From NCBI GenBank assembly GCA_963733035.1, contig CAVTBU010000005.1:960001-1024000 (forward strand): a DNA stretch of 64,000 nt, given 5' to 3'. Of the stretch, positions 41,052 to 57,490 are shown piece after piece; positions within the stretch are counted from its first letter, which is position 1; each line of letters opens with the position of its first letter. The notes below the pieces were generated by a model. It was not told the origin of the DNA. It worked only from the letters and a program-made list of their open reading frames with translations, and made no database searches. A program made the translations under genes and the position numbers. This DNA comes from Pirellulales bacterium. Its GTDB lineage: Bacteria; Planctomycetota; Planctomycetia; Pirellulales; PALSA-1355.

Positions 41052-42017
41052 CTAAACGGCCTTCTGCCGGACGTTGGACTGCGGCTGCCGCTCACGATGA
41101 AGAATTGCTTCGACGGCGCTGGGCGAGACAAACGCCAGGCTCGCGATCATCAACATGAGGGCGAACGTGATGTCGCCCGTAACCATCGCCAGTGATGTCC
41201 AGACGATAACGCCGAGCGTCAGCAAGAGCGGCCGCGCCAGTGGTACCCAGATCAGCACCGGGAAAACTAGTTCGAAGGCAATCACGACATGGGTCCAAAA
41301 ATCGATGACGAGTGGTGACGTTTCAAGCCACGTAAAATCAACCAGCCGAGATTCGTGTCGCGTGATCAAAAACCAGATGCCACCCCCGTTCCACCACACG
41401 TCGCCACCGAGTTGCGAAAATCCCATCATTCCCACCAACAGCGCCATGTGGATCTGGATCAGGCGTGTGGAAATGGTGGCAGTCGTGGAAAGGGGCGCGT
41501 GAGGCACGCCCAACAGAGTGCCTTTACGCGCGGCGAGCAAGGCATCCACGGAGAATCTGCGGCCGCAGGGCGCGACGCACAAGTACAACATTACCATAGC
41601 CAGGATCGATTCGGTACGTCCCGTGATCATCGGCGCCCGATTGACCACCGATAGAAACACAACGAGCGCCAAAACTGATGTGATTCGCGTCCATACACCG
41701 GCGGCGAACATCACCAGGACGGCCAGTCCCAGCAGGTGCACAATCCACAACTCGGTCGTGCCGTAGACGTAGTTCAAGTACGAGAGTGTGTTACCCTCGA
41801 GTGGCGAGATATCGACTGCCGGCAGCATCCCGCCGGGACCAAAGAACGCCGCCAAGTCAAACGTTAGCGTGGCATGCAGGTAGACCACAACGAGCCCGGC
41901 AAGCAGACGGATCGCAGATACCGTCGCAGGGTCACTGGGAATAAACCAGAAACGAGTCCAGGCAGTACCAAACCCGTTCGAAAGTCGAGCAAAATAGGAA
42001 CCGGTTGGGTGGCTCAT
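41052..42017 (-). CDS. HTTM-domain membrane protein (SdpB / vitamin-K carboxylase-like), divergent
   Basis: W.RFWF.P..P...aiR, G.wTR, NR.P, FSVDA, RLIQ.H and W..G motifs; multiple TM helices. Confidence 0.8.
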   Translation of the reverse strand: MSHPTGSYFARLSNGFGTAWTRFWFIPSDPATVSAIRLLAGLVVVYLHATLTFDLAAFFGPGGMLPAVDISPLEGNTLSYLNYVYGTTELWIVHLLGLAVLVMFAAGVWTRITSVLALVVFLSVVNRAPMITGRTESILAMVMLYLCVAPCGRRFSVDALLAARKGTLLGVPHAPLSTTATISTRLIQIHMALLVGMMGFSQLGGDVWWNGGGIWFLITRHESRLVDFTWLETSPLVIDFWTHVVIAFELVFPVLIWVPLARPLLLTLGVIVWTSLAMVTGDITFALMLMIASLAFVSPSAVEAILHRERQPQSNVRQKAV

Positions 42018-42802
42018 GGCCGCGAGCTCCTTGGTACCGCGGGCGCAGATCGGGACGGTGTGGGAGCCGGCGGTGCTGCGTTGTCTTCGACCGGAGCAAC
42101 TTCCAAAGTGGTCGACTTGCGTAGCAATTCGACACTGCCGCGGCTGACGATCACCTCGGCTTCGTAGACATTGCTCACGTTTTGTTCGGCGGCCCGGGCA
42201 ACATCGGCCAGGCTGGCCATTTGAGCAAGATCGGCCAATCCGAGCGCACGAATATGAATCACGCCGCCGGTAGCGTTCTCACGCCGCAGGAGCGATCCGG
42301 CGATCGCCTTAGGGAGAATGCTGGTAAGCCCATCCCCCATCTCGCCAGAGGCCAGCGTACCGGTGGCATTGACCAGTGCCTGATAGCGGCGGAATCGGAT
42401 CAGAGGCTGAAGCGGAGTTGGAGGCAGCGTCAAAGTCGCTGCAGAGCCGTCTGTTCGCTCGACGTCGACTTCGATCGAGTAGTCGACGTCAGTGGGGCCG
42501 GCATGGGTCAGGTGAAACCTCGCATATGGATAGCTCGTGGGCAGTGCAGTGAGATGCAGGTTCCGGAGGTAAGTCTCGAACAGGTTGTGCAGGCGTTCTT
42601 GCAAAACGCTTGGTCGAGTATAGGCTGAGACGGCCACAATCACCGCAAACAGATGCGCGAATAAAAGCAAACTGACCCACGTCCTGGTCTCGACGCTCCA
42701 CGTCGGCTCCGGAGTCTGCGTTTCGGACGGTGCTGTCATCGTCAACTTCTTATCACCCAACGTCGTGTCATGTGTATGGTGGGAATTCACTATGGCCCGC
42801 AT
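42014..42802 (-). CDS. HTTM partner protein (N-terminal TM with His; SdpA/DUF5819-like position)
   Basis: Stop overlaps the HTTM start (ATGA); single TM WVSLLLFAHLFAV. Confidence 0.7.
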   Translation of the reverse strand: MRAIVNSHHTHDTTLGDKKLTMTAPSETQTPEPTWSVETRTWVSLLLFAHLFAVIVAVSAYTRPSVLQERLHNLFETYLRNLHLTALPTSYPYARFHLTHAGPTDVDYSIEVDVERTDGSAATLTLPPTPLQPLIRFRRYQALVNATGTLASGEMGDGLTSILPKAIAGSLLRRENATGGVIHIRALGLADLAQMASLADVARAAEQNVSNVYEAEVIVSRGSVELLRKSTTLEVAPVEDNAAPPAPTPSRSAPAVPRSSRP

Positions 42803-42895
42803 GCCTCCATCGTCGTGGCGAGGCGTTTGGCTTGACGACCGGCGGGATGGGTGTACTTGGCGCGAAAGACCGTCATGACGCGACCATGATTCTAC

Positions 42896-42933
42896 AAAAA
42901 AAGCCGGACCTCAAGGAATGAGGTCCGGCTTTT
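42896..42933. terminator. Bidirectional rho-independent terminator
   Basis: A7-GCCGGACCTC-AAGGAAT-GAGGTCCGGC-T4; on the minus strand it follows the Cys-rich gene. Confidence 0.88.
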
Positions 42934-43063
42934 AAAGCCGTTCTACTCAGTTGAGCCGATCCGCCTGGACCAAAGGCGCCTTCAACTCCTCCGAGCTTAG
43001 TGACTGCGAATGACCAGCGTGCACCATTGCAAGTCACCAGGCAAAATCAACAAGGTCGCGTTA

Positions 43064-43456
43064 TCAGGCACTGGGAGCCGGAGCGGCCGGAGCCTCGGGA
43101 GCTGCAGGAGCTTCAGGGGCCGCCGGAGCTTCGCTACCGCTGCAAGCCGGGGCAGCGCCGCAGCAAGCCGGAGCGGCGCCGGCACATCCACAGCAGCGAT
43201 GCTTGCCAAACAAGCCGTGGCAGCGCTTGCGGCCATGACAACGATGACGGCCGTGGCAACGATGGCGACCGTGGCAGCCACCACAATCGGCACCACCGCA
43301 ATTGCCGCCGTCACATGCCGGAGCGCCACCGCAATCGCAGCCGCAACAACCGTGATGACGGAACAGACCGGCCGAGGCCGTCTTCTCGCTGCCGAGCAGC
43401 GACAGGCCGACGATCGCGAAGAACAACGCGATCCCGAAAACTAACGTGCGATTCAT
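43064..43456 (-). CDS. Secreted Cys/His/Gly-rich repeat peptide
   Basis: AGGAGG RBS, signal peptide ending TASA, 17 Cys and 9 His in 101 mature aa, three CHGR(H/K)R and three EAPAAP repeats, double stop TGA TAA. Confidence 0.85.
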   Translation of the reverse strand: MNRTLVFGIALFFAIVGLSLLGSEKTASAGLFRHHGCCGCDCGGAPACDGGNCGGADCGGCHGRHRCHGRHRCHGRKRCHGLFGKHRCCGCAGAAPACCGAAPACSGSEAPAAPEAPAAPEAPAAPAPSA

Positions 43457-43673
43457 CTAGAATCCTCCTACAGGTATACCGGAACGTACGGGTCCGTAAA
43501 CAAAAACTTGCTTGTTATGCCGTCCTACGTCCTCCGCTTCAACCGTGACGGCACTCGGCTGAAGGTACCTCGAAAACTCTTAAAAACAGGCGGTCCGCTA
43601 GCAGGCAGAAGGGCCCGTATTATAAGTTTTTCCGATTAGACAAATCCTTCTGGATACGCAGTCTAGGCTGCTT

Positions 43674-43701
43674 AAGGTATCACGGTGGGTCCCATTGTCA
43701 A
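43674..43701 (-). promoter_or_regulatory. Candidate sigma70 promoter of the Cys-rich peptide gene
   Basis: TTGACA-N16-TACCTT with an extended TG element, about 218 bp upstream of the ATG. Confidence 0.45.
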
Positions 43702-43996
43702 GCGGCAACAGGATAATGTGCGAGTCATGCGAGTCGCCGGTATTTTGGGCGATAGTTGCTCCCGGTGTGCTGTTCAACCATAGGACAAGTTTCAAGACTG
43801 TCCACTGGATTGGGGGCGCAAGAAGAAGGGCCCCGAATTTCATTTCGGGACCCACCGGCGGGGCGCGATGATAAGCGGAAAGCCTCGCGAGACTTACGTA
43901 ATTTCCATGCCAGCCATTGACGGGCCTGGACCAACCGAATTCGGCAAAATCACCGTATTTTTGGCAGACCCGAAGTTTGGTTTCCGGGCCTCCCTT

Positions 43997-44575
43997 TTAG
44001 CGTATTGTCGGATCGCCGTCGTTAGTGGCCTCGCTCGAGTCGACTTGGATCAGCGCGTCTCGACGCGCAATTTCCTCCTCAGCCTGTTGTTGCTTGCGAA
44101 GCATGTCTTCCGGATCCTCGAAGTTCAACATGATTGGAGCCATATCCGGAAATACACGAGTGGCCATGCCTCTAATTCGCCAATCAGCACTGTCGCGACG
44201 CAAGAGCCAAACGATACGATCGGTACGCGGCCGACCATCGGCGTCCAAATCGGTCCAATCCGTGGCAACCTGAGCTTCGTTACCTTCGATCTCGGATTCC
44301 AGTACCTTAAAGCTGGCAGTGTCACTGCCGGGGGGGGCTACCACCATCTCCATTTCCGTCGTCTTTTGCCGGGCAACCTGGGTCAAGAGCTCCGACGCTA
44401 GCTTGTCATCCCCCTTTTTCACCGCGGAAAGAAACTCGCGGATTACAGCTTCTGCGCCGCGTGCGTCCGATGTTGCCGTCTCGGCCCCAGGTTTGGGTTC
44501 ACTAGATGTGCCACATCCGGAGAGCAATAGCGCCGCGCAAACCGTAGCCGCCAACCAATCCATTCGCGAAACCAT
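43997..44575 (-). CDS. Lipoprotein of unknown function (NTF2-like/DUF4878-like)
   Basis: AGGAGG RBS, lipobox LSGC, FL.Av..GD...A..LL and W.lrr....Wri motifs. Confidence 0.8.
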   Translation of the reverse strand: MVSRMDWLAATVCAALLLSGCGTSSEPKPGAETATSDARGAEAVIREFLSAVKKGDDKLASELLTQVARQKTTEMEMVVAPPGSDTASFKVLESEIEGNEAQVATDWTDLDADGRPRTDRIVWLLRRDSADWRIRGMATRVFPDMAPIMLNFEDPEDMLRKQQQAEEEIARRDALIQVDSSEATNDGDPTIR

Positions 44576-44730
44576 AACTGCCTCCTTGCATGGCCAAACG
44601 CGGTGTGTACGTTGCGATGCCGTGATGCGAAAACCGCCGGCGATTCCTCGGGATGCCATTGGCGGCGAAGTCTCGCAACTTCGGCGATCAGGGTCAAGAC
44701 GAACCGCACCAGACGTGCTAGCAATGCGCG

Positions 44731-46224
44731 TCAGCCTGCCCGCAGACCACGATCAAAAGCATCCTGGTCCCTGCTATACAGCGCCAACACCGACTCGAAT
44801 TGCTCGCTGGAGATATACCAACTCGGCTCGTCGTCAGTGTGGGCATTGCAGTGCGCCACCATCAAGCGGTACATGAATTTGAATAGGTGTCGTGGCACCC
44901 GCAGTCCGCGGAAAGCGTCGACTAGCCGACGATCGTTGACGACCGGATCGAATAGGTCGCGTAGCGTGGGTGAACTGCCCGGAATCGCACAAGCCTTGAG
45001 CCGAGCCGAAGCGACGTCATACAACGCCTCGCCGGTCCATTCGAGCGACGGCACCAAGTTTTGCTTATCCAGTCGCGCTCGCTGGTAAAAGTCGCGGTCT
45101 TCCCGGTCAATGTACTGCGAAAGTTCGATCGGTAGTAAAAGCTTGAAGCCAACTCCGGGGTGTTTGAGGAACTTATTATCGAGCATTGGCCATAGCAGGG
45201 CACGCATCTGTTCGACCGACCCATTGATCAGATGTGGTTCGTCCACTCGATCGACCAGCACGACAATCCCGTTGAATCCGAGCGTCTTTAAGATGCCCTG
45301 AAACTTGGCGAGCAACTCGTAGCGATCGTCCGTACGCTGCTTGCGCGGCAACGGTTGTCCCGACAGATCAACGCTCCGCAACTTAGTGAGCATGCGACGC
45401 AGTTGCTGCGTTGCATGCCTGCCAACGCGCACATTGCGTGAAACGCCGACGGCCAACCATAGCCGACGCACGAATCGGACCAGCCAAGGTAACCACGCCA
45501 CGCCCGCGGCCAGGTACAACCACGGAAACTCAAGCCACTCCCACTTACTCAAGTACACCACGAGTCCAAAAACGGCTGCCGTAGTCGCAATACCCAGGCC
45601 CAGATCCCAGTGTGCAAACCAATTGCGGTAGCGCAATTTCCGCCGCAGACGATTCCAGCGGCCCCGCTTCGTTTCGGCGGTCGATTGATCATAGCAGGCG
45701 GCCAACAGCAGCAGATCGCGGGCTTGATGGTGGTCGAGCGAACGCACTTCCGCCGGATCGAAGGCATTCGTGGGCGGATCACCGCTCTGCTTCGTTTCCA
45801 GGATGCGATCGACTAGTCCGGTCACTCCCAGCGACAGAATCGCGTCCATGTGGTCCCAAAGTTTCCAGTCACTTAGCACCTTGTCGGCTCGGCGATGCCT
45901 TGAGCCGAATCGATCGCGAAAACGATCCAGGAAAGGATTGAAGTCGTCGTACTCAATTACGTACACGCGTCCGTGTGGGTGGGCTTGGTTGTGGTCGCAC
46001 AAATGCCTCACGATTTGAAGGCGCATCGCCGTCTTGCCGGCTCCTTTTTCGCCAAAGACGATTGAGGTGGACGGCTCAATTGGATCTCCGTATATCTTGT
46101 CCCAAGTCGGGTGATGCGTGCTTGAAATGCAATAGTCCTTGAACACCGGATCCGTTTGCGCGTCTTCTTCGGCAAACGGATTAGTGCGAATTCCGTGGTG
46201 TTCGAGAAACTGCTGCGTTTTCAT
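44731..46224 (-). CDS. P-loop NTPase with two TM helices inserted between Walker A and Walker B
   Basis: FGEKGAGKT, two hydrophobic helices at about aa 205-250, VVLVDRVDE. Confidence 0.85.
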   Translation of the reverse strand: MKTQQFLEHHGIRTNPFAEEDAQTDPVFKDYCISSTHHPTWDKIYGDPIEPSTSIVFGEKGAGKTAMRLQIVRHLCDHNQAHPHGRVYVIEYDDFNPFLDRFRDRFGSRHRRADKVLSDWKLWDHMDAILSLGVTGLVDRILETKQSGDPPTNAFDPAEVRSLDHHQARDLLLLAACYDQSTAETKRGRWNRLRRKLRYRNWFAHWDLGLGIATTAAVFGLVVYLSKWEWLEFPWLYLAAGVAWLPWLVRFVRRLWLAVGVSRNVRVGRHATQQLRRMLTKLRSVDLSGQPLPRKQRTDDRYELLAKFQGILKTLGFNGIVVLVDRVDEPHLINGSVEQMRALLWPMLDNKFLKHPGVGFKLLLPIELSQYIDREDRDFYQRARLDKQNLVPSLEWTGEALYDVASARLKACAIPGSSPTLRDLFDPVVNDRRLVDAFRGLRVPRHLFKFMYRLMVAHCNAHTDDEPSWYISSEQFESVLALYSRDQDAFDRGLRAG

Positions 46225-46233
46225 GCGGCGTTG

Positions 46234-46845
46234 TTAGTTCTGCTTGAGGCCTTCGATCATTTCGACGAATGCCCGTTCATTTTCGGCGATGGTTTGATTG
46301 GGCCCGTAGAGCTTGACGAAATAGTTGCCGTTTCCGTTGGTCGAGATAATTGCCGCCAGCATTCGAAAGTTCGGCCGTTCGACTGCCGGGGCCGCCGGAC
46401 CGCGCTGATCTCGGAAGTTGCCCGAGATTTCCACCAGGTGCACGTCCTGTCCGGCAACTTTAATCTGCTTGATCTTGGCCCGCTCGCGAGTGCTACTACC
46501 GTCTGGTTGCGAAAACTGTCCGAACCAGCGGTCAATATTTGCCTCAATGCTTCCGCCCGCTCCCATTACGGTTAGACGGCCGTCGATCTTGTCGCCCTCA
46601 GCGGCCGGAATGGCAAACTCTTGCTCGACGATCCTCGTTCGCGGCTGTTTGCGCACCCACGTTTTGGGTGCGGTGAGTTCGAACTTGCCTTCCGCAATTG
46701 CGAATTTCGCAGGATGATCCTGCGCGGTTGCCACGACGGACGAGGCCCATATGACGACCGCACCGGCGCAGTGTACGAGCGTTCGGCAAGACATAGATGC
46801 CCCCATCGATTTTGAGAGTTTAGAACCTTGAAGTAAGTCGGACAT
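46234..46845 (-). CDS. Secreted hypothetical protein
   Basis: Signal-like N-terminus, P..W, GG..eANI.RW.GQF and yfvKl.GP. Confidence 0.8.
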   Translation of the reverse strand: MSDLLQGSKLSKSMGASMSCRTLVHCAGAVVIWASSVVATAQDHPAKFAIAEGKFELTAPKTWVRKQPRTRIVEQEFAIPAAEGDKIDGRLTVMGAGGSIEANIDRWFGQFSQPDGSSTRERAKIKQIKVAGQDVHLVEISGNFRDQRGPAAPAVERPNFRMLAAIISTNGNGNYFVKLYGPNQTIAENERAFVEMIEGLKQN

Positions 46846-46877
46846 GCGGCCAGACCATCGCCCAAAGCGTCATCAAC

Positions 46878-47699
46878 TTAGCCGCACAGGGAAATCGGCG
46901 TCAAATCAGGCCTTCTGGTCACTTGCTGCTTCGGGTGGCGAAACGGGCTCGATAGGCGCGTTTTGCGCCGAAAAACCAGCGCCAGAATAATGATCAGAAT
47001 GACCGTTACGGCGACCAGCACGGCACTGGCCATTAAGCTTACATCTTTTTTTCGCCTGCGCTTGCGGCTCATTTCGGCCAGCGGAGGCACGGAACCGGAC
47101 GAGGAAACTTCGTGTGGTGGCGGGCTGGGAGCCAGCACTTCGGCGACTCGCCCGCGCGGCAAGTCGGCGGCCGATGTGCCCGCACCTGGAAGCGGCGCCT
47201 GCGGCATCGCTGGACCGGGGGCTACGAGTTGGGACCCGAGTTGTGGAAACGTGGCCGCCGCGCTTCGCCACTCCGACCACCCGTCGCGCCAAACGAGTGA
47301 ACTTGCCCCGACACGACCGTCCTTTATCCAGCCCCGCATGATTTCGCCGGAGGCCGGGCCGAACTGACCGCCGCTAGCCGGCCGCACGTACCACACGGCG
47401 CCTGGCGCTTCGGCGATGGGGTCATTCGCGGTGGTTTCGGTCACCTCCCGCGAGGGCGCGGTCGGCTTGGCCGAAATGGCGACAGCCTGGCTCAACTCCA
47501 CCAGCTGCGACTCATCCAATTCGAGTGACGGTTCGGTCGACGTGCCGTCGTCTCGCGCCGTTTCCGTATTCGACGTTCTCGTATTGTCAGCAGGAACTAC
47601 AACCCTTGCACCACATTTTGGGCAAATGGCCCGCTTGCCACTGAGGAAACTCTTAACGTGAAGTTTATGCCCATTGGGGCACAGAAACTTGATGCCCAT
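46878..47699 (-). CDS. Zn-ribbon plus GYF_2 (DUF4339) membrane protein; probable C-terminal frameshift near 46973
   Basis: CPNGH...CPKC, WYVRP..GGQFGP...W...GRV....LVWRDGW.EW, and a TM helix. Confidence 0.85.
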   Translation of the reverse strand: MGIKFLCPNGHKLHVKSFLSGKRAICPKCGARVVVPADNTRTSNTETARDDGTSTEPSLELDESQLVELSQAVAISAKPTAPSREVTETTANDPIAEAPGAVWYVRPASGGQFGPASGEIMRGWIKDGRVGASSLVWRDGWSEWRSAAATFPQLGSQLVAPGPAMPQAPLPGAGTSAADLPRGRVAEVLAPSPPPHEVSSSGSVPPLAEMSRKRRRKKDVSLMASAVLVAVTVILIIILALVFRRKTRLSSPFRHPKQQVTRRPDLTPISLCG

Positions 47700-47908
47700 C
47701 TTCTATCCGCTTGCCCCAGGAATCCTGCCGCATCACGGTCCTACCGGACCACCGAGTGTGTATTTACCGGGGCAAGGATTGATGTGAAAAAACCCCGGCG
47801 AACTGCCATTATATATACTTTTGGCGCAGCGGTGGAAAACGACAGTTGTCCGCGGTTGGCAGGAAATGCGACCCTAGGAAGGAAAAGCAAGTTGCCGGTG
47901 CAACGTCG

Positions 47909-47938
47909 CGTCACGACAGGGCTCGTCACGACAGGGCT
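47909..47938. repeat. Perfect 15-bp tandem duplication
   Basis: CGTCACGACAGGGCT twice, in a divergent intergenic region. Confidence 0.9.
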
Positions 47939-48125
47939 CTCGCATCGCCAAAATTGGTACAACACATGAGGCCCACTGCTGGGGGCCCCTCAGGAGCCTA
48001 GAAAAATGCGGGATTTTCGCGTCGGAACTTGATTGTTCTGGGCATCCAGTCAAACTACATGCAGGGTACTGGCAGGTCCGCCACACGGGCCGGTCCAACG
48101 TGCAAAACATAGGGGACGTGGCACG

Positions 48126-48746
48126 ATGCAGCAGCAACATGAAGAGGAAGGTCCGCTTGAACTTGCTCTCGTCGGGGACCTGACCGACAACGAAGTCGAA
48201 CTCACTGACAAGCTTTTGGCCGTCGAGCCTGGCGGCGAATGTACGATGTTCATCGATTCGCCAGGCGGAAGTCCGTACTGCGCGATGTCGCTGATGACGC
48301 TCATTCTGGTCCGTGGCCTTCGCGTTACGGGCATCGTTACCGGCGAATGCTCTTCGGCCGCCTTGTGGCCGTTTGCTGCTTGCACTCGACGCTTGGTCAC
48401 ACCATATAGCGTACTGCTATTCCATCCCATGAAGTGGCAGAGTGAAGAGCACGTGGGCTTAGCCGAGGCGGCCGAATGGGCGCGCCATTTCGGCAGTCTG
48501 GAAGATGACATGGACTCCCTGTTGGCCGAGTTGTTCGGGTTGCCGAATAGCGAGATGGAAAAATGGATCAAACCCGGCCGCTACGTTTCGGGAAACGAGA
48601 TCGCCGAAGCGGGCCTAGCCGAGATGATCGACTTGCGAAAGTTTCGCACGTTGGCAGCGGCACCGAAACCGGCCCGGCGTCATCGTAAGCGGGCGTCCAA
48701 CGGCAGTGGATCCGAAGCCGTGCGTCCGGCGGCCCAGCGCCGATAG
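48126..48746 (+). CDS. ClpP/crotonase-fold protease-like protein, divergent
   Basis: IDSPGG, GECSSAA (Ser), LLFHP (His), E..eaGL. Confidence 0.8.
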   Translation: MQQQHEEEGPLELALVGDLTDNEVELTDKLLAVEPGGECTMFIDSPGGSPYCAMSLMTLILVRGLRVTGIVTGECSSAALWPFAACTRRLVTPYSVLLFHPMKWQSEEHVGLAEAAEWARHFGSLEDDMDSLLAELFGLPNSEMEKWIKPGRYVSGNEIAEAGLAEMIDLRKFRTLAAAPKPARRHRKRASNGSGSEAVRPAAQRR

Positions 48747-48766
48747 GTCGAGCCAGTCGAAGCGGC

Positions 48767-49756
48767 CTAGCTGCGGTAGCCGTCGTGGCAGTTCGTGCAT
48801 GACTGCCCAAGTTTGCCGGCCGCCTGACGAGCTTGTTCGTAGTTCCCTTGCAGTGTCGCATCTCGCAATGATAGCGCCTGTTGCTGCATCTCCCGAGCAA
48901 ATTCAACATACGACGCGTCGTCGGCAAATTCGTAGCCCGGTCGGGTAATCACCTCGGCCAGTGCCGCCACGATCTGTGTTTCGTGCAAGAGTTGATCGGC
49001 ATTTTGCTCAAATTGACGCTCACTTCCCACCAGGGGGGTGATGCCTTGCTGTTCGGCCTGATCGAGCCGTTTCATGAGGGCTGATCGGTCTGCAACTCGC
49101 GGCCATTCCAGGATGGTGGATGGTTCTGACAATTGCAGCGATCCGCCGCGGACGAGGGTCTGCAGATCCTCGGCTCGACTGCGGGCCTCGTTGAAGGACG
49201 CATCGCTGGCAACCTTGCAATTCAATCCCGCACGACCAACGAGGTCTCGAAGCGATGCCGCCTCCTGTTTCCAGCGAATTGGTCCGTCGAATTCTGCGAC
49301 AATGGCCAACATGGCGGCCAGCATACTCAACCGTGTCCGGGCCTGTTGGTACTCCCCGCCTTTAAAACGGGTCGCGTTTTGGACGGTCTGCGCCAGCTTG
49401 AGTTGCTGGGCCTTTACTTCGTCCTCGACTGCTTCGGCGGTGATAAACTTCGACCAAGAACCACCTGGCGTGACTTCTCCGCTCGAATTGGCCGCACCTG
49501 GCGAAGTACTGGCCACCGTCAGCGGGCGGCCGTCGGATATTTCGGGACGCGGCCCCTCAAGCTTTTCGCGCGCATCCGAGAAGAATACGTCTTGAATGCT
49601 CTTGGGAAACTTTGGAGGCCGTGCGCGCTTTCGGGGAGGAGCCGCTTCCGACGGTGTAATGACGCCGATCACCAGCGCCATGAGCAGGATTGAGAGCGGC
49701 AACGCCGGCCTAATGGCACGGGAAAAACGACAATATCCAGGTGGTCGGTAGTACAT
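48767..49756 (-). CDS. Secreted class II cytochrome c (cytochrome c'-like)
   Basis: Signal peptide, predicted helical sequence, C-terminal CTNCHDGYR. Confidence 0.8.
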   Translation of the reverse strand: MYYRPPGYCRFSRAIRPALPLSILLMALVIGVITPSEAAPPRKRARPPKFPKSIQDVFFSDAREKLEGPRPEISDGRPLTVASTSPGAANSSGEVTPGGSWSKFITAEAVEDEVKAQQLKLAQTVQNATRFKGGEYQQARTRLSMLAAMLAIVAEFDGPIRWKQEAASLRDLVGRAGLNCKVASDASFNEARSRAEDLQTLVRGGSLQLSEPSTILEWPRVADRSALMKRLDQAEQQGITPLVGSERQFEQNADQLLHETQIVAALAEVITRPGYEFADDASYVEFAREMQQQALSLRDATLQGNYEQARQAAGKLGQSCTNCHDGYRS

Positions 49757-49848
49757 ACCTCGATTATGTTCACGGTCGAGCGGGATGACAACGTGCCTAC
49801 CTGGCTTGTGATGTCAGCAATTGACGGCACCAGGGTATAATTTGCTTG

Positions 49849-50940
49849 ATGCATGGGAAGCCCCACTCTACTCGCCGCGAGTTCCTGACCGGCCAAGCCG
49901 CGGTCGACGCGCTAACGCAATTCGACATTGGCGGTGTCGAGCCCTTACCCCCACCTGCGGCCGCGACCGATCGATATCTGCTGCGGTTGGCGCGGCGTGC
50001 CATGGCCTGCTCGTTCGAAGTCTTCTTAAATGCCGGTCAACACCGGCAATCTACCGCCGCCGCACTCGCTGCGCTCGACCTGGTCGATCGGCTGGAAACT
50101 CAACTGACGGTCTACTGCGAAACGAGTGAAGTGAGCCAACTCAATCTCGCGGCCTCGTTTTCCGCGGTCGAGGTCGAGCAAAGCCTGTTCTCGCTCCTTG
50201 AACTAGCCGTGAGATTGCATCGCGAAACGGGGGGAGCGTTTGACGTGACGGCAGGCCGGCTGTCCAGTATCTGGGGATTTACCAATCGCGCTGGCAGGAT
50301 TCCGGACGAAGCTGAGCTCGAGGCGGCTCGAAGGTGCGTCGGCAGCAACTATCTTGAGCTTGATGCGGCCACTCGCAGCATCCGCTTCAAGCGCCCTGGA
50401 CTTGAAATCAACTTGGGAGGCATCGGCAAGGGCTACGCACTTGATCGATGCGCCGAACAGCTCGAAGGTGCCGGAGTTGAAAGCTTTCTCTTGCACGGGG
50501 GGAGCAGCAGCGTTCTTGCGCGAGGCTCGCATGCCGCCGAGACCGATCTTGGCGGTTGGCTCATCGGAGTCCGCAACCCGCTGCGACCAGACCGCCGGTT
50601 GGGACAATTTCGCCTCCGAGACAGGGCGCTGGGCACATCAGGCTCGGGAACCCAATTCTTCGAGCACGCCGGGGAGCGCTATGGGCATATTCTCGACCCG
50701 CGTAGCGGTTGGCCGGCCAAAGGCGTGTATACCGTCAGCGTGCTGGCACCCACCGCCAGAGAGGCTGACGCCTTGGCAACCGCGTTTTATGTGATGGGAC
50801 CGTCCGCGGCCTCGGAGTATTGTGCAAGCCATCCGGACGTCGCGATGGTGATGCTTTGCCCAGGCGAACGCGCTGGGGCGATTAAGATTGAAACCTATGG
50901 GCTTGCCGAGGGGGAATGGACACTCGTCGAGTTCCCATGA
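49849..50940 (+). CDS. apbE: FAD:protein FMN transferase (ApbE)
   Basis: AM.c.f, SEvS.lN, TGGAFDvT, nLGGIGKGYALD, TSG, GHILDPRsGWP and ADALATAF. Confidence 0.93.
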   Translation: MHGKPHSTRREFLTGQAAVDALTQFDIGGVEPLPPPAAATDRYLLRLARRAMACSFEVFLNAGQHRQSTAAALAALDLVDRLETQLTVYCETSEVSQLNLAASFSAVEVEQSLFSLLELAVRLHRETGGAFDVTAGRLSSIWGFTNRAGRIPDEAELEAARRCVGSNYLELDAATRSIRFKRPGLEINLGGIGKGYALDRCAEQLEGAGVESFLLHGGSSSVLARGSHAAETDLGGWLIGVRNPLRPDRRLGQFRLRDRALGTSGSGTQFFEHAGERYGHILDPRSGWPAKGVYTVSVLAPTAREADALATAFYVMGPSAASEYCASHPDVAMVMLCPGERAGAIKIETYGLAEGEWTLVEFP

Positions 50941-51049
50941 GCCTCGCCGGAAGAGGCCACTAGTTTCGGTCGCAGTTGATTGAACGATCGGGCCGTTTCA
51001 CGCGGATTGCCTAGTTTGACGTATTCCAAGCACCGATCGTCGGGCTAGA

Positions 51050-51754
51050 ATGCCTTCGGATTGGGGCAGCTCTGAACCCGGCGGACTAGGCAAGACTTTG
51101 TTCGACTTACCGCTCGATCACATGTCGTATTTGGGGATCATTATGATCCTCGTGTTCACGGGTTGCGGATTGCCAATACCCGAGGAAGTGCCGATCATCG
51201 CGGCAGGCATTGCGAGTTCCGTCGGGACGCTGAATCCCTGGTGGGCCTTCCTATCGTGCGTCGTTGGTGCCGTTGCCGGCGACTCGGTGTTGTACGCCAT
51301 CGGCTACCATTTTGGGCATTCGCTCGTTTATCGGCACCCCCGCTTTGCGCACCTGTTGCATGCCGAGCGTGAAGCCAAGATCGAACAGATGATCCGAAAG
51401 CACGAAGTGAAAGTCTTGTTTCTCTCGCGGTTCATGGTTGGCGTACGAGCGCCCGTATATCTTGCCGCAGGAATCCTAAGAATTCCGTTTCTGCGGTTCT
51501 TGATCATCGATGTGGTTTGCGCGACTACCGTCGTGGGGTTATTCTTCGGTTTGAGTTATGCCTACGGCGATCGCTTGACACGGCTGATTCGGCAGTCTGA
51601 AATCGGTTTAACGGTTGTCATTGTCGCGGCCGCCGTGGCTGTGACCGCATATTTCTTCTGGCGCCGCCGCCGAAAGTTGCAGCAGGTACTGGAACCGGAA
51701 CTCAGGGACGAGGAAGCGTGCACAGTTGGAGCACGGGATTCCGAATCGCTTTAA
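51050..51754 (+). CDS. DedA family membrane protein
   Basis: GLPIPEE, GD...Y.iG, lSRF.vGvR and AG. Confidence 0.9.
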   Translation: MPSDWGSSEPGGLGKTLFDLPLDHMSYLGIIMILVFTGCGLPIPEEVPIIAAGIASSVGTLNPWWAFLSCVVGAVAGDSVLYAIGYHFGHSLVYRHPRFAHLLHAEREAKIEQMIRKHEVKVLFLSRFMVGVRAPVYLAAGILRIPFLRFLIIDVVCATTVVGLFFGLSYAYGDRLTRLIRQSEIGLTVVIVAAAVAVTAYFFWRRRRKLQQVLEPELRDEEACTVGARDSESL

Positions 51755-51818
51755 AATCGCTCCGTACGGACTTCGTAGTCAAATCTGGAGGTGGCGAACT
51801 TTTTTGCCGCCGGGTGCC

Positions 51819-52861
51819 ATGCTTCGCTGGGCCTTGATTACGTTTACCTGTTGCCTGTCTCTTGGGGCTCACGGCGGCTGGGCCAGTTGGCGGCTCCTGT
51901 GCTCGTGCCCAGCAAGGTCAACGCGGCACGGTTGCGATGGCTGCAATACAAACTCGTCGCCGGACGAGTCATGGCCAACAGCTCGTACCCGGCTGGCATG
52001 AACATTTCGTTCGGCCCGTCCGTGATCGACGGCCGATTTCGCGAACATTTGCAGCTGCTCATTCTCAAGGACCAAGCCAGCATCAATTACGAGTTGTCGG
52101 GCGACGGCGAGGAACTGGCGATCGAATTATCCGAGACGGGCGCGTTTGCCATTCGTCGAACGCGTGCCAATCCGGCTTTTGCCCTTGAGTACTTGCAGCC
52201 TCCGGACCATCCGGTGACGCTTTTCGTGACGGCCGACGACGAAGAGCGAGCTATCGCGGGCGACAGCTTCTGGCACGTTTACTTGGCCGAGCCGGACCTC
52301 GTGCGAAACGAACTCGTTCCGTACTTGGAATTGCTACGCCCCTCGTGGCAGTTGGCCGCCACTGGTGCGGCGATTGAAGATGCATTGATTCAGCAGGCGC
52401 AACATCCTCATGCGATCGACACCGAGCGGTGGCAGGCGCTCGTTGCGCAACTTGGTAGCGATCGCTTTGCCGACCGAGAGAGTAGCGAGCGCGAACTATA
52501 TCGCGTCGGCCAGCTAATACTGCCCTATCTAGAGGACCTCGATCCGAAGTCGCTTGACGCTGAGCAGGCTGCTCGAGTTGGAAAACTGATCAAGAAGCTT
52601 TCGGTCGATTATGAAGATGCGACTGACCGAATTGCCAACTGGTTGGCGGGCGACCGTCAAGTATGGCTGTCGTTGCTCGATCGTGACGAACCCGTCAAAC
52701 GCCGTGTCGCAGCGCAGCAACTCGCATTGTTAGTGGGCAGACCGATCGAATTTGATCCAGAAGCCGACGCTGCCACCAGGCGCGACCAATTCGCAAAACT
52801 TCGTCAGCGCTTTGGTACGACCCGACCACCGGCAAAGGTGACAGAGCGGGCCGGACGCTAG
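51819..52861 (+). CDS. Secreted hypothetical protein; probable frameshift near 51881
   Basis: A signal peptide (MLRWALITFTCCLSLGAHGGW) lies in the frame neighbouring the long ORF 51791-52861. The C-terminus has a HEAT-like L.sd.f..Re motif. Confidence 0.65.
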
Positions 52862-54581
52862 TCCCACCACCAGGCATCAAGCGGCAGCTCGCCGCTGGCC
52901 CAACTTAACCGCTCGGTAGCCAAGCGGCCTTGCGGGTCGCTCTGGATCGCGGCTGACCGAACGTACTTCCACGGTTCGGCACGCACGCCGCCGCTGACTC
53001 CCACGACGAGATGTTTGCCGCCAATGCGCCGATGGTTGATGACCGATTCGACACTCTGAGGCGCAGGCCCTAATGCAACCTGGTACTGTTTCGGGTCGCC
53101 AAAGCAGGTCATATGCCAGCCGACACGTTCAGCAAGGCCCTCTTGTCGCACAAGGGCGGCCACAAGCGCCAAATCAAATACGTTCTGCAGATCGGCATAA
53201 ACAGGATATATCGCCGCCAACTCGGCGAAGTGCTGTGTGAAGCGATTCGAGAATTCTTGATTCGTTACATTCGACTTCCCGGTATGGATACGCCGTCCCA
53301 GTTGGGTGAGAAATTCATTTTCGCTGAGAACTTGCACGCCTTGGCCGCGAATTTCAAACCCGTCACGGTTTGTCGTCGGCGCAGGGCATCATACTTTAGC
53401 GTGAACCACCACCGCAGCACGTCGAGCGGCGGCGGTGTTGCGCCCGGCCTAACCCGAATCAGTTCCAGATAGCTTGGCACGTCGACCGTTCCCCGCTCCA
53501 ATCCCATGCCGACCAGCTTCATGTGGTAGTCCGCCTTGACAAGCACGCGAGCCACGCGGGTACGAGGATCGATCCCTTCGACGGAAATGGCTTGACGGCC
53601 CATACAATTGCGCAGCTTGTCGAGCCAGCTCGTTCGCTGGCTAGGATTTAACGGAGCAGCGCTGGATTGTTCCGCGAATCGCCGCGTGCGAGCCAACCCC
53701 TCTTGTGTCGGATTGATCGAGCAGGCGAAAGCCGCATGCGGATCGGCCATTTGTTGCCGCAACAGCACGACCAGATCGTCAAGTTGAAGCACAGGCCGGC
53801 CCGTGTGGCGACTCACTTGTCGGCCCTCGGCGTCGGTTTGCCACGAACCGGCCGGACCGGCAAGGACGAGATCGCCGGTTTCAGGATATACGAGCACATA
53901 CTGGATCTTCTCTAGCCCAGCGAGATTTCGCATCTCGTCGTTCGGTTGCCGTCCCGAAGCCAGCGCAAGCTGCACGTGCTTTTCCAACCGCGTGACAGAA
54001 ACTTTCCGTAGTGGACTGCAAAGGCGTGAATCGACGTTCGCGTCTTTGTTCAGCGAGGCCAATCGTGCGATGGCCAACCCCCGCGCTTTCCGCACGGCCA
54101 GCTTTTGTCGCAAGACGCCCTGGGGATCGACGTACACGCCGTTTTGGAACTGGGAGATCGTGCCCGGACCGCCGACGTCATCCCAGGTTTGTGGTCGCAC
54201 GGTCGTCGTAATCAAGTCAATGAGCGCACCGAAGTTCGCTTGTGATCCGCCACCTGTGCCTCGCCCACCGAGGACACGAATTGCTTCGCTGCGCGACAAA
54301 TCGCTCTCGACCGCCGCAAGCGTATGGAAGGCCGCGTCTTGACCACCGGCACTGGCTTGGGCTTGAGCCAGTCTGCCTAACAGAGCGTCACGCTGTGATG
54401 CGTCCGAAACGGCTCTGGCAGCCGCCAATGCGGGTGCAAATTCGCCGGCGGCCAACTGAGCCTCAAAACCGTCCGGGTCGAGCAGCTCGCCGCTTGAGGC
54501 GGTCGTGATCCCAACAGCAAGAATGGCTAGGCCGCATCCGAAGACGACAAGCCCGCGCGTGGACATCGTAGGCGCTCTCAT
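52858..54581 (-). CDS. DUF1598 family protein, frameshifted near 53380
   Basis: LRKVS..RLE, LAGL.kI.YV.vYPE.gDlVlAGPA, CSI.P, ADY.MK.vG and RWWF; the second frame continues V..LSE.E...L.N.fDLA...SGGV. Confidence 0.85.
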
Positions 54582-54676
54582 GAGAAGGACTCCCTGTTCC
54601 GGCGGAAAGGCGAATCGCAGCGCGCGACGACCTTTAAGCTCGCACAACAGTAACCGGAAGTCAAGAAAACGCCACG

Positions 54677-54718
54677 AAAAACGAACGGCCCGCCCAAGTC
54701 GTGCTCAGGCGGGCCGTT
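54677..54718 (-). terminator. Rho-independent terminator after the Cys-rich gene
   Basis: AACGGCCCGCC / GGCGGGCCGTT stem, with an A-tract at 54677-54681 (U-tract on the minus strand). Confidence 0.75.
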
Positions 54719-54774
54719 GTGTTTCTACTGTCAAGGAGACCGCTCAAATGTTCGCGGGTGCTCCGCTGTGGCAA

Positions 54775-55257
54775 TTAGCCACCGCAACCGCAGGACGGTT
54801 CGCAAACCGGGGCACAGCAGCTGGGCTCACAGCACGGCGTGCAGCAGCTCTTGCGGCAGCAGTGACGGTGGAACAGGTGGCAGCGGTGACGGCAGCACTT
54901 CGGAGCGCAGCACGAAGGCGCGGCACAGCACGAAGGTTCTGGCGCACAGCATGTCGGTTCCGGCGCACAACAAGTGGGCTCACAGCACGACGTGCAGCAG
55001 CTCTTGCGGCAGCAATGACGGTGGAACAGGCGGCAGCGGTGACGGCAGCACTTCGGAGCGCAGCACGAGGGCGCCGCACAGCACGAAGGTTCTGGCGCAC
55101 AGCATGCCGGCTCACACACCGGAGCGCAACACGACGGCTCGGGGGCACAACACGACGGCTCACAACAGCCGCCAAACAGGCGGGCTTCCGCTTGCGAAGC
55201 GGAAAGCACAAACAGACCGGCCAACAGCAGGGCCGGCAACACGATCCGGGATTTCAT
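54775..55257 (-). CDS. Secreted ultra-Cys-rich (CCxP) repeat protein
   Basis: AGGAG RBS, 25-aa signal peptide ending AEA, 44 Cys in 135 mature aa, CCAPEPS repeats, downstream terminator. Confidence 0.88.
54842..55105. repeat. Internal direct repeat of about 110 bp, period 153 bp (51 codons)
   Basis: 54842-54952 and 54995-55105 are nearly identical. Confidence 0.9.
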
Positions 55258-55408
55258 GGACGGAACTCCTAAACAGAAACTTTGGGGGATTCCACTTCTC
55301 CTTTGACCGCACAGCCAATCAGACCTCTGGCGCATTTTTATGCGAAGTATCAGGCCTGGCTGAGCAGCTACGTCTGAGGTCGTTCCCGTAGGAAAGCCTC
55401 GCTGATGG

Positions 55409-55436
55409 TTATCGTCGACGCAGTTCCGCCCTTTTA
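55409..55436 (-). promoter_or_regulatory. Candidate sigma28-like promoter of the Cys-rich gene
   Basis: TAAAA-N15-GACGATAA on the minus strand, about 150 bp upstream of ATG 55257. Confidence 0.45.
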
Positions 55437-55748
55437 GTCTGTCTATCTATTTCTCCTAAACTTCCTGGATCAGGAGTGCATGCAGACGGGATCTAGCGGT
55501 TTTGCGGCACCTCGGTTCCGTCGCTGGCCGATGTTAACCATCCACGCAGAGGGGATTTACGAAAAACCGACGCCAATACATGCGGTATCGCAGGCAAAAT
55601 CGCGCCGAGCGAACCAACCTGGCTGGGCAGCAACTAGGCCGGCGCACTTTCAAATTCCCAGTTATGACCTAGAGTTAGCTGGAGCTTTGATAGGCCGCGT
55701 TCGGCGAGCTTTGGAGTTGCCGGTACCGCATCCGGCACTGGGGCGGAA

Positions 55749-56081
55749 ATGTCGCAGATTCGCACGCAACTTCCGACGATTCACTCGTCTCTTGCAGCGG
55801 ACCCCGTGTTGGCAGAACTCGTCGCTGAATTCGTCACCGAGATTCCCGGACGGTTGGCACGGTTGCGACGCCACCTCGAATCGGAAGATTGGGACTCGCT
55901 CCGACGCTCGGCGCATCAACTGCGAGGAGCGGCCGGGAGCTATGGTTTTGACCCGATTACTCCGCTCGCTGCGGAAGTCGAAACACTTGTCTGCCAGTGC
56001 GCAAGTCGCAAACAGGTGGCCTCAGCCACGCACCTCCTGATAGCGCACTGCCAACGGATGAGTGCCGATACCGCTCGGTAG
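55749..56081 (+). CDS. Stand-alone Hpt (histidine phosphotransfer) protein
   Basis: AHQLRGAAGSYGF motif. Confidence 0.9.
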   Translation: MSQIRTQLPTIHSSLAADPVLAELVAEFVTEIPGRLARLRRHLESEDWDSLRRSAHQLRGAAGSYGFDPITPLAAEVETLVCQCASRKQVASATHLLIAHCQRMSADTAR

Positions 56082-56092
56082 ACGTGGCGCCG

Positions 56093-57490
56093 CTACCTTT
56101 GCTCACGGTCGGCAGCCATCGACAGGGCGACTAAGTAGGGCACCGGTTCACTGCCGAGCGCGTTTAAAACGGTCCCACCTGCCGTAAAGACGTGGGTAAC
56201 GTCCGCGGGCTTGCCGTACCGTTCGAGAGCTGCGCCACCTTCGCCACCGCCAACATAGACTTCCACGCCCGCATCGTGGAGGCGTTTGAGTTGGCTGATG
56301 AAGTGTTTGGTGCCCTCGGCAAACTGAGGATCTTCGAACTTGCCGAACACGCCGTTGTAAAACGCCACAGTACGGCGGCCCTTGTGCCTATCGATGAATT
56401 CACCGACCTTCGTCGCAAATAGTTTGCTCGTCATTGGACCAACGTCGAGTTGTTGGTCTTTGGGCCCGATCGTTTCGCCAACTTGGCCATTCTGCAGAAC
56501 GAAGTCTACCGGCAAGACAAATTCAATCCCTTTTTCACGGCCTTCGGAAATCATCCGCCGAGCTTGTTCAATTCTCTCTGCCGGAATGAAGTAAGGCTTG
56601 TCTGCGTGCGTCGGATCTTCGGCGACACCCATCGAGAATTGTTTTCGATCAAGTTCTGCTGAAGCCTTTTTGAGCGCCATGGCCAACGAACCCGCGGTGA
56701 ACACCATTTTCACTTTGCCGCGCCCGATCATGGCCTCGAGATCGTCAAGCTTGTCGGTCTTCAGGCCACTAAAGATCACGAGCTCCGTGTCGAGGCATCG
56801 CAGCATTGGCCCATCGAATTCCTTGGCCACATAGGCACCAAGGGCCACACGATCCATCGCGGCTGGCACGATGATGGTGGACGTATCGAGGCTTCCGGCC
56901 GACAAGGCTTCGTTAACGTAGACCTTTGCCACGTTGTCCGCCATTTGCTTGGCAAAACGGGCAAGGGGTCCGGCGAGATTTGCAAGGTCGTCGGGTTCGG
57001 CCTTCCAGAGGACGCGTTCAATTTCGTATCGACGTGTGTTTTCAAGTACCAAAATGCTTCCAGGTGCCGCCGCGCGAATCGTTTCGACAACGTGATTCTT
57101 GACCGTCAGCGATGATTCGTCGAGCCAATCTTCCACTAGCGGCACGTTGCACTTGAGCAATTCGCCGATCCGCCGCGTAACGTTGGCCAACGTTTCGTCC
57201 GGCTTGCGTCCACGATGGCCGAAGATAATCTGCTTCCACCCATTCTTGCGGCCGAATTCGAGTGATTCCACCATCGAACGCAGACGGATATCGCCGTCGC
57301 CGATTTGTGACCCGGGTTTTGCATCCACGTCGCCGCGTACCAGCACGGGCGTACCGCTCTGAATCTCGCGTAGCGAGTCGAGTCGCGGAATACTCTTGAG
57401 GAAGTCAGCCAGCGATCGCATCGGACGCTGCCCGTCCACGTTTAACAGCGTTTGGCACCACTTCAGCATGAATTCGGGGGAGACGTTCAT
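56093..57490 (-). CDS. Phosphoglycerate kinase-like protein, divergent
   Basis: vLVR.D, GH.GR, LENtR, yVNea, lDvGP, NG.fG.FE, GGGE and T.GG motifs. Confidence 0.85.
   Translation of the reverse strand: MNVSPEFMLKWCQTLLNVDGQRPMRSLADFLKSIPRLDSLREIQSGTPVLVRGDVDAKPGSQIGDGDIRLRSMVESLEFGRKNGWKQIIFGHRGRKPDETLANVTRRIGELLKCNVPLVEDWLDESSLTVKNHVVETIRAAAPGSILVLENTRRYEIERVLWKAEPDDLANLAGPLARFAKQMADNVAKVYVNEALSAGSLDTSTIIVPAAMDRVALGAYVAKEFDGPMLRCLDTELVIFSGLKTDKLDDLEAMIGRGKVKMVFTAGSLAMALKKASAELDRKQFSMGVAEDPTHADKPYFIPAERIEQARRMISEGREKGIEFVLPVDFVLQNGQVGETIGPKDQQLDVGPMTSKLFATKVGEFIDRHKGRRTVAFYNGVFGKFEDPQFAEGTKHFISQLKRLHDAGVEVYVGGGEGGAALERYGKPADVTHVFTAGGTVLNALGSEPVPYLVALSMAADREQR

Follow-up and report, generated by a model that had tools for sequence, protein, structure and literature searches.

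The window analysed here is a stretch of 64,000 nucleotides from a Pirellulales bacterium (G000:C5:960001-1024000; G000 is the window's own genome, and G, L and P numbers label genomes, loci and proteins). Two of its minus-strand open reading frames (ORFs), here termed A and B, are conserved genes for small exported proteins of very high Cys content. B shares its C-terminal module with the YTV wall protein of the same genome, and A heads a conserved gene cluster whose last member, N2, has a predicted HTTM fold of the type found in the membrane domain of the gamma-glutamyl carboxylase GGCX. We give about an even chance to the interpretation that A and B are genuine small, Sec-exported, basic, low-complexity Cys-rich proteins of two systems, with B a cross-linker of YTV caps and A the cargo of N2 and its partner N1.

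ORF A: 43064..43456, minus strand, 130-residue protein with 17 Cys, 9 His, 23 Gly and 25 Ala
ORF B: 54775..55257, minus strand, 160-residue exported protein with 44 Cys and 21 Pro

A sequence-only reading of the window had proposed both ORFs as exported Cys-rich genes, and its counts were reproduced on the minus strand at these coordinates. B starts with a 25-residue signal peptide that ends in AEA and contains no Cys, which leaves 44 Cys in 135 mature residues. A starts with a highly conserved hydrophobic segment of 29 residues, MNRTLVFGIALFFAIVGLSLLG..ASA, that is either a signal peptide or a signal anchor, and all of its 17 Cys and 9 His lie past this segment, in 101 mature residues. In an effort to establish the coding status of the two Cys frames, 12 pairwise alignments (six for B and six for A) were made using the Cys-frame protein as guide. 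The ratio of nonsynonymous to synonymous substitution rates (dN/dS) in the Cys frame was 0.10-0.18 in all six B pairs and 0.10-0.28 in all six A pairs, and differences were in excess at the third position (in one example 15, 13 and 46 at codon positions 1, 2 and 3). Homologues do exist in the Cys frame, and selection acts on that frame.

The antisense shadow ORFs to which attention had been drawn are also present, and they invite the reading that the Cys frames are artefactual, the true gene lying in an overlapping open frame or the region being non-coding repeat DNA. Over each gene a pair of plus-strand frames stays open, with 0-1 stops, and can mislead gene callers. Their dN/dS values of 1.1-4.2 in all 12 pairs are not those of coding frames. 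Only one further frame has a low ratio, the wobble-aligned antisense one, where such a ratio is expected geometrically, and it holds 4-5 stops in both genes. Conservation on the Cys-frame strand also extends, independently of the protein-guided alignment, to the start codon, ribosome-binding site, signal peptide and terminator, and there are hundreds of Cys-frame homologues. From these comparisons the artefact reading appears effectively refuted, and we give it almost no credence. Given the orthologues, the low dN/dS in the Cys frame and the rejected or closed shadow frames, A and B are real genes, and coding in the Cys frame can be regarded as settled.

Mature B consists of 33% Cys and 16% Pro. 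Its signal peptide is followed by RLFGG, CC(A/E)PEP(S/T)CC units, two CCRHRC(R/H)LFHRHCCRK linkers and the end CEPSCGCGG. All of the motifs quoted earlier for the two proteins (CCAPEPS units, CCRHRC(R/H) repeats, LF-basic-CC blocks and AAP(S/A)CC) were found. Cys-dense ORFs are rare in this genome, where 31 of 63,029 stop-to-stop ORFs of at least 60 residues reach 12 or more Cys per 60-residue window; B is the richest of all, ranking first with 21 Cys in such a window. An AlphaFold2 model of B has a predicted local distance difference test (pLDDT) score of 52.7 and no confident fold. Part of the gene is a repeat, and the signals around it are conserved.

Tandem duplication within B: 54807..55110, minus strand, unit of 153 nt (51 residues), 2.0 copies, 93% match
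Ribosome-binding region of B: 55255..55274, minus strand, GTTTAGGAGTTCCGTCC-ATG, kept in orthologues
5' leader of B: 55275..55465, minus strand, about 210 nt, containing blocks of sequence that persist between genera within the family
3' untranslated motif of B: 54727..54745, minus strand, GAGCGGTCTCCTTGACAGT, between stop codon and terminator, kept in 9/9 orthologues shown
Intrinsic terminator of B: 54675..54718, minus strand, 15-bp stem and T run

The ORF list extends B to an upstream ATG at 55335; the conserved start with its ribosome-binding site is 55257, as the sequence-only reading had chosen. The Shine-Dalgarno sequence is AGGAG and is present in most of the 28 B-family loci inspected. 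In the leader, RNAalifold predicts 31 pairs, eight of them with compensatory changes; a predicted hairpin of the form GCCUG..CGCA..UGCG..CAGAGGC has compensatory changes. The terminator folds at -29.2 kcal/mol (z -4.9) and is listed by a consensus scan.

B belongs to a family with 93 homologues at E<=1e-3; in a set of 1.84 billion proteins it accounts for 475 clusters at 50% identity, with lengths of 47-313 residues throughout. B-like genes occur in 31 of the 41 related genomes used for orthologue counts. The 80 kept genome loci that carry a taxon name are planctomycetal without exception (Blastopirellula marina DSM 3645, Aeoliella sp. SH292, two Botrimarina species and Fuerstiella metagenome-assembled genomes among them), and a search of the ESM Atlas with B returned planctomycetal clusters only. 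A profile search of an even sample of 301 genomes of the phylum found B-like proteins in 11: the window's own genome, one other of its order, and 9 of the 15 sampled from one further family, probably a neighbouring one of the Planctomycetales. No longer fused form of B scored among 1963 candidates in what was a weak search.

The layout of the family is an AxA-ending signal peptide, heptad CC(A/E)PEP(S/T) units, one to three basic linkers (RHRxGLFxxLFHRH), and a terminal EPSCGC with 1-2 further residues. By a crude test, signal-peptide-like N-termini are present in 89 of the 93 B hits (and in 24 of 24 A hits). Of 70 parsable members, 49 have a hydrophobic pair (GLFG or FGFG, for instance) among their first six mature residues, as compared to 41 of 591 control ORFs with signal-peptide-like starts. 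The C-terminus is of C-(x)-C type in 62 of the 93 hits. Members average 20% Cys and 12% Pro; EP precedes xC[CG] in 501 of 1320 cases, and the spacing from CC to CC is most commonly 7 (278 cases), with 5 in 156 cases. Residues other than Cys are also conserved, including Pro and the Glu residues E33, E40 and E100 (>=90%).

An indication of what B might do comes from the genome's YTV protein, which has 773 residues and matches PF07639 with 742 bits. It carries CCATCCEPC straight after the signal peptide, and an EPSCGCGG-type module at the C-terminus, as in B. Of all ORFs in the genome, only B and the YTV protein finish in EP[STA]C[GC]C plus 0-2 residues; A lacks this ending. A C-terminal C-x-C plus two residues is retained by the YTV orthologue at 23 of 30 loci across the order. 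When 27 YTV tails are combined into a profile, it matches the C-terminus of the B profile from end to end (probability 81%, E 1.3e-5), as compared to a probability of 1.3% for the reversed control. In G013, both B and the YTV protein end in the unusual SCACGG. Beyond that genome, co-variation of the two tails is not strict, and on the sequences at hand it is best called anecdotal.

YTV proteins are established as Cys-rich wall proteins (PMC8567305, PMC12673574) and have been identified by proteomics of planctomycete wall preparations (PMC8567305, PMC12673574, PMC5287468), and planctomycete envelopes are reported to be rich in Pro and Cys and stabilised by disulfides (PMC3035269). Mature B fits the reported envelope composition better than the YTV repeats do. 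By analogy, the most economical reading is that B would be a free-standing, multiplied version of the YTV cap module, disulfide-bonded to YTV caps and to itself. The envelope role proposed in the sequence-only reading for both proteins is thereby strengthened for B, by the C-terminal module that it shares with the YTV protein; A heads a cluster with an HTTM/GGCX-like membrane protein that the same reading had overlooked.

Past its N-terminus, A continues with GLFRHHGCC, a Cys/Gly-rich stretch, (R)CHGRxRCHG repeats, GLFGKHRCC, AAPACC and a tail of EAPAAP repeats. Repeats of 18 nt at 43214-43276 and 43080-43133 encode its CHGRHR and EAPAAP units. The A family comprises 24 homologues and is present in 35 of the 41 related genomes; in the phylum sample its profile found 2 of 301 genomes, both of the window's own order. 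Its N-terminus is unusually conserved (MNRTLVFGIAIFFAVVGIALLG..EK.A.AG, then usually GHGCHGC). The core is conserved in composition only (Cys, Gly, His and Arg) and is followed by an Ala/Pro-rich tail.

Ribosome-binding region of A: 43454..43470, minus strand, TAGGAGGATTCTAG-ATG with Shine-Dalgarno AGGAGG
Promoter of A, conserved, sigma-70-like: 43671..43701, minus strand, TTGACA, 16 nt, TACCTT, with an upstream TG
Second conserved promoter-like site of A: 43777-43804, minus strand
Intrinsic terminator between A and N1: 42895..42932, minus strand, 15-bp stem and U run

The promoter lies about 245 nt before the ATG, which gives a leader of about 210 nt. Over 43471-43670 (minus strand) RNAalifold predicts 20 pairs in this leader, five with compensatory changes, and sequence blocks are kept across genera. 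The terminator folds at -27.2 kcal/mol (z -8.3) and is kept in 8/8 orthologues, although a consensus scan missed it. A strong ribosome-binding site, a long leader and a terminator of its own, as predicted for each gene, thus hold for both A and B. The two leaders may be unrecognised cis-regulatory RNAs. A search of 42000-56500 against Rfam gave solely a sub-threshold miRNA chance hit, with no metal riboswitch in the leaders. No motif common to the A and B leaders was found, and a comparison of the upstream regions of five Cys-rich genes (A, B, the YTV gene and two more) yielded no shared cis-element. Codon adaptation places A at the 53rd and B at the 80th percentile; codon bias in this genome is weak, so the measure is uninformative on the abundance proposed in the sequence-only reading.

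A lies second in a set of four genes on one strand, in the order U1, A, N1, N2.

U1: 43997..44659, minus strand, 220-residue predicted lipoprotein, LLLSGC lipobox kept in relatives
N1: 42014..42802, minus strand, 262 residues, one N-terminal membrane helix, downstream of A, 4-nt overlap with N2
N2: 41052..42017, minus strand, 321-residue multipass protein, predicted HTTM/GGCX-like fold

Neighbourhoods were inspected at 36 distant loci, 20 around B and 16 around A. At the 16 A loci, BLASTP found U1 in 11, N1 in 11 and N2 in 13. In 19 of the 22 genomes with A, the contig that carries A also has N2, no more than about 2.2 kb away, and the three genomes without A (G005, G010 and G026) have N2 hits at the score level of a second paralogue only. 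Upstream of U1, at 44731-46224 on the minus strand, is a P-loop ATPase of 497 residues with membrane segments (U2), which has sub-threshold NCBIfam hits to the anti-phage family DS41_1 (103 bits against a cutoff of 370) and to the Sll1717 ATPase family. As a member of the conserved cluster U2 was rejected, since it adjoins U1 in 1 of the 16 distant loci.

None of U1, N1 and N2 has an above-threshold match in Pfam or NCBIfam; U1 has a weak sub-threshold hit to NCBIfam Rv0361_Cterm. N2 had no hit to Pfam HTTM (PF05090) at E<=10, and a search of PDB sequences with the N2 profile gave 0 hits. Structure-based comparisons were more telling. In the ESM Atlas, N2 falls among HTTM clusters (score 0.98, 30/30 hits). 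Its structural model has a pLDDT of 82.8, and the top 15 Foldseek matches are all human GGCX (E 4e-5 to 3e-3). VIA-align superposes residues 14-313 of the model on GGCX 32-327 (Z 20.8, root-mean-square deviation 3.4 Å over 273 residues), as compared to Z 7.8 for the best non-GGCX chain. The model therefore firmly predicts an HTTM fold of the GGCX membrane-domain type. K202 of N2 is nearly invariant and falls near K218, the catalytic lysine of GGCX, by interpolation of the aligned ranges, not by residue-level alignment.

A paralogous cluster was found elsewhere in the same genome (L193).

Paralogous cluster: G000:C7:208914-211803, secreted protein, N1' and N2'

This arrangement is kept in 14 of 17 loci. 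The secreted protein has about 320 residues, with a signal peptide, AQAG-WRHHHR, a low-complexity region rich in Gly, Ser, Trp and Tyr, an Ala/Pro linker and two TIGR03000 domains. N2' is a paralogue of N2 (profile E 4e-81) and matches Pfam HTTM with 35.2 bits against a cutoff of 27.7, over profile positions 1-257 of 259. N1 and N1' are related by hhalign (probability 99%, E 2.6e-18), a homology that BLASTP does not detect. Two paralogous pairs, each preceded by a different low-complexity secreted protein, suggest that each pair has the secreted protein ahead of it as cargo or substrate, and on this sequence pattern A is probably the cargo or substrate of an N1-N2 membrane enzyme.

A and B had been described as related. 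This was not supported: BLASTP between them gives only E=0.001, over low-complexity segments, and in the profile-profile comparison the signal peptides alone align (probability 84%). The two proteins are nonetheless alike in composition and have short motifs in common, and modules are shared at the family level. P0110 and P0112 are chimeric, with an A-type N-terminus and B-type CCxPEPxCC repeats, and a third, longer subfamily (G000:C5:2130820-2131680) joins a B-like core to an A-like tail, AAPMPPAP...VVRRN. We read this as modular reuse of low-complexity cores, a sequence pattern from which common descent is not demonstrated. At least 14 genomes of the same family preserve the spacing of about 12 kb between A and B, which is lost in more distant ones; this is ordinary synteny. 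With their differing phyletic ranges, A and B are two families and appear to belong to two systems. Judged by distribution, both are vertically inherited and confined to Pirellulales-type planctomycetes, with B-like proteins also in one neighbouring family. Neither has a match above threshold to a curated family in Pfam or NCBIfam, and homologues are named 'hypothetical', with one NCBI 'keratin-like protein'.

On the favoured reading, B would most likely be a matrix protein of the periplasm or wall that forms disulfide cross-links, tying YTV rods and itself into a Cys/Pro-rich protein envelope resistant to sodium dodecyl sulfate (SDS), in the fashion of keratin-associated proteins (KAPs) and keratin filaments. 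Its His/Arg-rich GLF...HRH linkers would provide positive charge. N1 and N2 would form a two-piece, gamma-glutamyl-carboxylase-like membrane enzyme, and A, once exported, would probably be bound or chemically modified by it and then join the envelope. The N1'-N2' pair would act likewise on the Gly/Ser/Trp/Tyr-rich secreted protein. The terminator layout of A resembles, by analogy, that of a highly expressed subunit or precursor gene followed by processing genes of lower expression. A more ambitious version, which we consider rather improbable, combines a wall built in part like hair, from YTV rods and B matrix, with a menaquinone-dependent, two-piece GGCX-like N1-N2 that modifies both A and the TIGR03000 protein. 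Modification, of which carboxylation of acidic residues is one example, would then take place at the outer face of the cytoplasmic membrane. If true, it would be the first case of a vitamin-K-type protein modification pathway at work in the assembly of a bacterial envelope.

Several observations weigh against this picture. For B, the shared cap is short (22 columns, 81%) and Cys-rich, and convergence or composition could contribute to the match. The tails of B and the YTV protein differ in G004, G018 and G022 (SCCGG in B, SCGCSN or SCGCAN in the YTV protein), as well as in G025 and G037. The commonest neighbour of B is a DUF1598 gene (7 of the 20 distant loci), a family of unknown function; no YTV, Dsb or HTTM gene was found beside B in the window or those 20 loci, where a thioredoxin-like (TlpA/AhpC-type) gene adjoins B in just two. 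The AlphaFold2 result for B would fit a matrix protein and, equally, an apo metal-binding protein. For A, the cluster is broken in 3 of 22 genomes (G028, G031 and G032), N2 lacks a threshold family hit, and no mapping of the GGCX catalytic residues onto N2 was obtained. The strong terminator of A ahead of N1 means that co-transcription with N1-N2 is not implied. The core of the A family is hypervariable, with CCCCC and HHHHH runs in one genome (locus L166), and is at least as much like that of a metal-binding protein as like that of a structural one.

The main alternative, above all for A, is accordingly that A and B are exported metallothionein-like metal buffers or chaperones, whose Cys (in A together with His) bind Cu, Zn, Ni or Cd in the periplasm, the thiols staying reduced because they are metal-bound. 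We give it a minor but real share of credence. A has CxC, CHG and HxxxxC motifs along with its nine His, and the polycysteine and polyhistidine runs of some members, in a core kept in composition and not in sequence, are what this reading would lead one to expect. Both proteins are small, with cores devoid of aromatic residues, and ligand-free B is predicted to have no fold, as is the case for apo-metallothioneins. On the other hand, no metal-resistance, efflux or metal-sensor gene lies beside A or B in the window or the 36 distant loci, and the Rfam search found no metal riboswitch in the leaders. The CCxPEPxCC heptads of B are nearer to KAPs than to the CxC/CxxC clusters of metallothioneins (its sole hit is a sub-threshold one to Keratin_B2_2), and its end module is common to a wall protein. 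The export signal on both proteins also counts against metal binding: known periplasmic metal proteins mostly use Met and His, since exported Cys is oxidised.

Bacillus SDP toxin needs the HTTM protein SdpB, and by that precedent A, and possibly B, could be a precursor from which the HTTM protein matures a secreted, cationic and Cys-rich peptide with an antimicrobial or signalling role. Mature A and B are indeed basic and Cys-rich; the gene order, with a small precursor-like gene, a strong terminator and then membrane maturation genes, is what such a system would show; and N2' hits the NCBIfam SdpB family (TIGR04033) at E 4e-14, with 52.8 bits against a cutoff of 178.4, where N2 has no hit. 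A is nonetheless single-copy and syntenic in 35 of 41 genomes, the pattern of a housekeeping gene rather than of a bacteriocin with sporadic occurrence. The A cluster showed no gene for immunity, an ABC exporter or an SdpA-like protein, and the paralogous cargo, at about 320 residues with two TIGR03000 domains, is not peptide-like; we find the peptide reading decidedly improbable. A sacrificial periplasmic thiol or redox buffer, or a sulfur store, with no structural role, would account for the extreme Cys content, and the two distant loci where B adjoins a thioredoxin-like gene are in its favour. A thiol reservoir would have no need of the conserved EP before Cys pairs, the basic LF linkers or the exact C-terminal module, and no reductase partner is consistently linked, which makes this the least probable of the functional readings and a very improbable one.

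The gene directly downstream of B is the DUF1598 gene.

DUF1598 gene: 52858..54647, minus strand, split into ORFs 53265-54647 and 52858-53337

The two overlapping ORFs (460 and 159 residues) align to residues 77-442 and 458-618 of intact relatives of 618-657 residues, and the split near 53300 is either a frameshift or a sequencing error. Broken copies were also seen among orthologues: in G004 (L158) the tail of A looks frameshifted and the adjoining N2 is in two pieces, and in G015 (L068) B falls into two ORFs. Assembly errors or decay of the copies may be responsible. Four loci with extra HTTM paralogues have no B-like gene beside them.

The majority of the distant A members end in a ..VSFRR motif, which is absent from the window's copy. 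An Ala/Pro stretch followed by a C-terminal motif (..F-R-T-V-S-F-R-R or ..VVRRN) occurs in L157, L159, L163, L165, L166, L170 and L171, and the same ending in P0099, P0101, P0104, P0106 and G000:C5:2130820-2131680; A and B of the window lack it. The motif may serve in sorting or docking. The genome has additional secreted Cys-rich ORFs outside any Pfam family, at G000:C5:1754082-1754504(-), C8:205521-206090(+), C5:1164659-1165132(-) and C5:2219594-2220925(+). Secreted ORFs of this kind include a CCxxxxxCC-repeat protein, a short YTV-like protein, one beginning PEPSCCTPEPACC, and a protein with a Cys/Gly knot and a helical-repeat C-terminus.

A literature search found no publications describing the A or B families or CCxPEPxCC proteins, the primary wall-proteome papers and their supplements being outside the search; none were found on a 'keratin-like protein' or on HTTM in Planctomycetes. 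Cys-rich planctomycete envelope proteins are already known as a kind; what appears to be new are the A and B families, which have no curated family, and the link of A to an HTTM/GGCX-like enzyme pair, which is unreported. The identity of the Cys/Pro-rich protein of the planctomycete envelope has been debated since the 1980s, and YTV proteins alone have been assigned thus far. The B family is far richer in Cys and Pro than these, and tryptic proteomics would hardly detect it because its repeat blocks lack Lys and Arg. Its composition, tryptic invisibility and YTV end module therefore make it a testable candidate for the missing cross-linker. Bacterial HTTM/GGCX-like proteins, whose substrates are almost wholly unknown, gain two candidate natural substrates. 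Cultivable carriers exist in Blastopirellula, Botrimarina and Aeoliella.

Among known systems, metallothioneins and His/Cys-rich metal-storage proteins resemble A and B in being small, Cys-rich (and, for A, His-rich) and of low complexity, and B shares with them the want of a confident fold. In contrast to these, A and B are exported, not cytoplasmic, and have no metal-related gene context; no metallothionein family match was found for either in Pfam or NCBIfam at E<=10.

A recent preprint describes bacterial HTTM proteins that pair with a single-helix partner, the two together mimicking whole GGCX, as in DUF5819-HTTM pairs, and names MloH as a bacterial vitamin-K-dependent carboxylase (10.64898/2026.08.19.745780). 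N1-N2 is similar in that N2 has a predicted HTTM fold and is translationally coupled to the single-helix N1. It differs in that N1 matches no known family, DUF5819 included, and N2 lacks the lumenal domain of GGCX (321 residues against about 750). Unlike GGCX substrates, A has no evident Gla-type propeptide or Glu-rich target. A further likeness is the gene for a substrate-like secreted protein that lies directly upstream in two paralogous clusters.

YTV proteins (PF07639), known from the walls of Rhodopirellula baltica, Gemmata obscuriglobus and Tuwongella immobilis, are exported and Cys-rich like A and B and come from the same organisms, and B has in common with them both the C-terminal module and a CCxxCCEPC motif after the signal peptide. 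A and B lack the YTV repeat (no PF07639 hit at E<=10), are 5-6 times shorter and have no predicted beta-rich rod. The range reported for YTV proteins is class-wide, whereas B-like proteins are narrower, with their 11 of 301 sampled genomes falling in two families.

KAPs (Keratin_B2_2, PF13885) combine vicinal CC pairs, short Pro-containing spacers and extreme Cys content, as B does, and the presumed role would be shared as well: a disulfide cross-linking matrix around a fibrous, Cys-capped partner. The likeness is convergent and not homologous, with B scoring 20.6 bits (E 4.2e-4) against a cutoff of 27 and A giving no hit. The repeat of B is the heptad CC(A/E)PEP(S/T), in which a Glu is conserved, and B itself is bacterial and Sec-exported and has basic His/Arg linkers.

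A further parallel is offered by OmcA and OmcB of chlamydiae, members of the same PVC superphylum, in which a small and a large Cys-rich envelope protein are disulfide cross-linked into a rigid shell. No sequence similarity to either was detected in A or B (no Pfam hit at E<=10 besides Keratin_B2_2), and OmcA is a lipoprotein, whereas A and B have no lipobox (their junctions are ASA/GLFRH and AEA/RLFGG, with no L-x-[GAS]-C ending the hydrophobic region). The pairing of a small with a large protein in OmcA and OmcB is nonetheless paralleled by small B and the large YTV protein.

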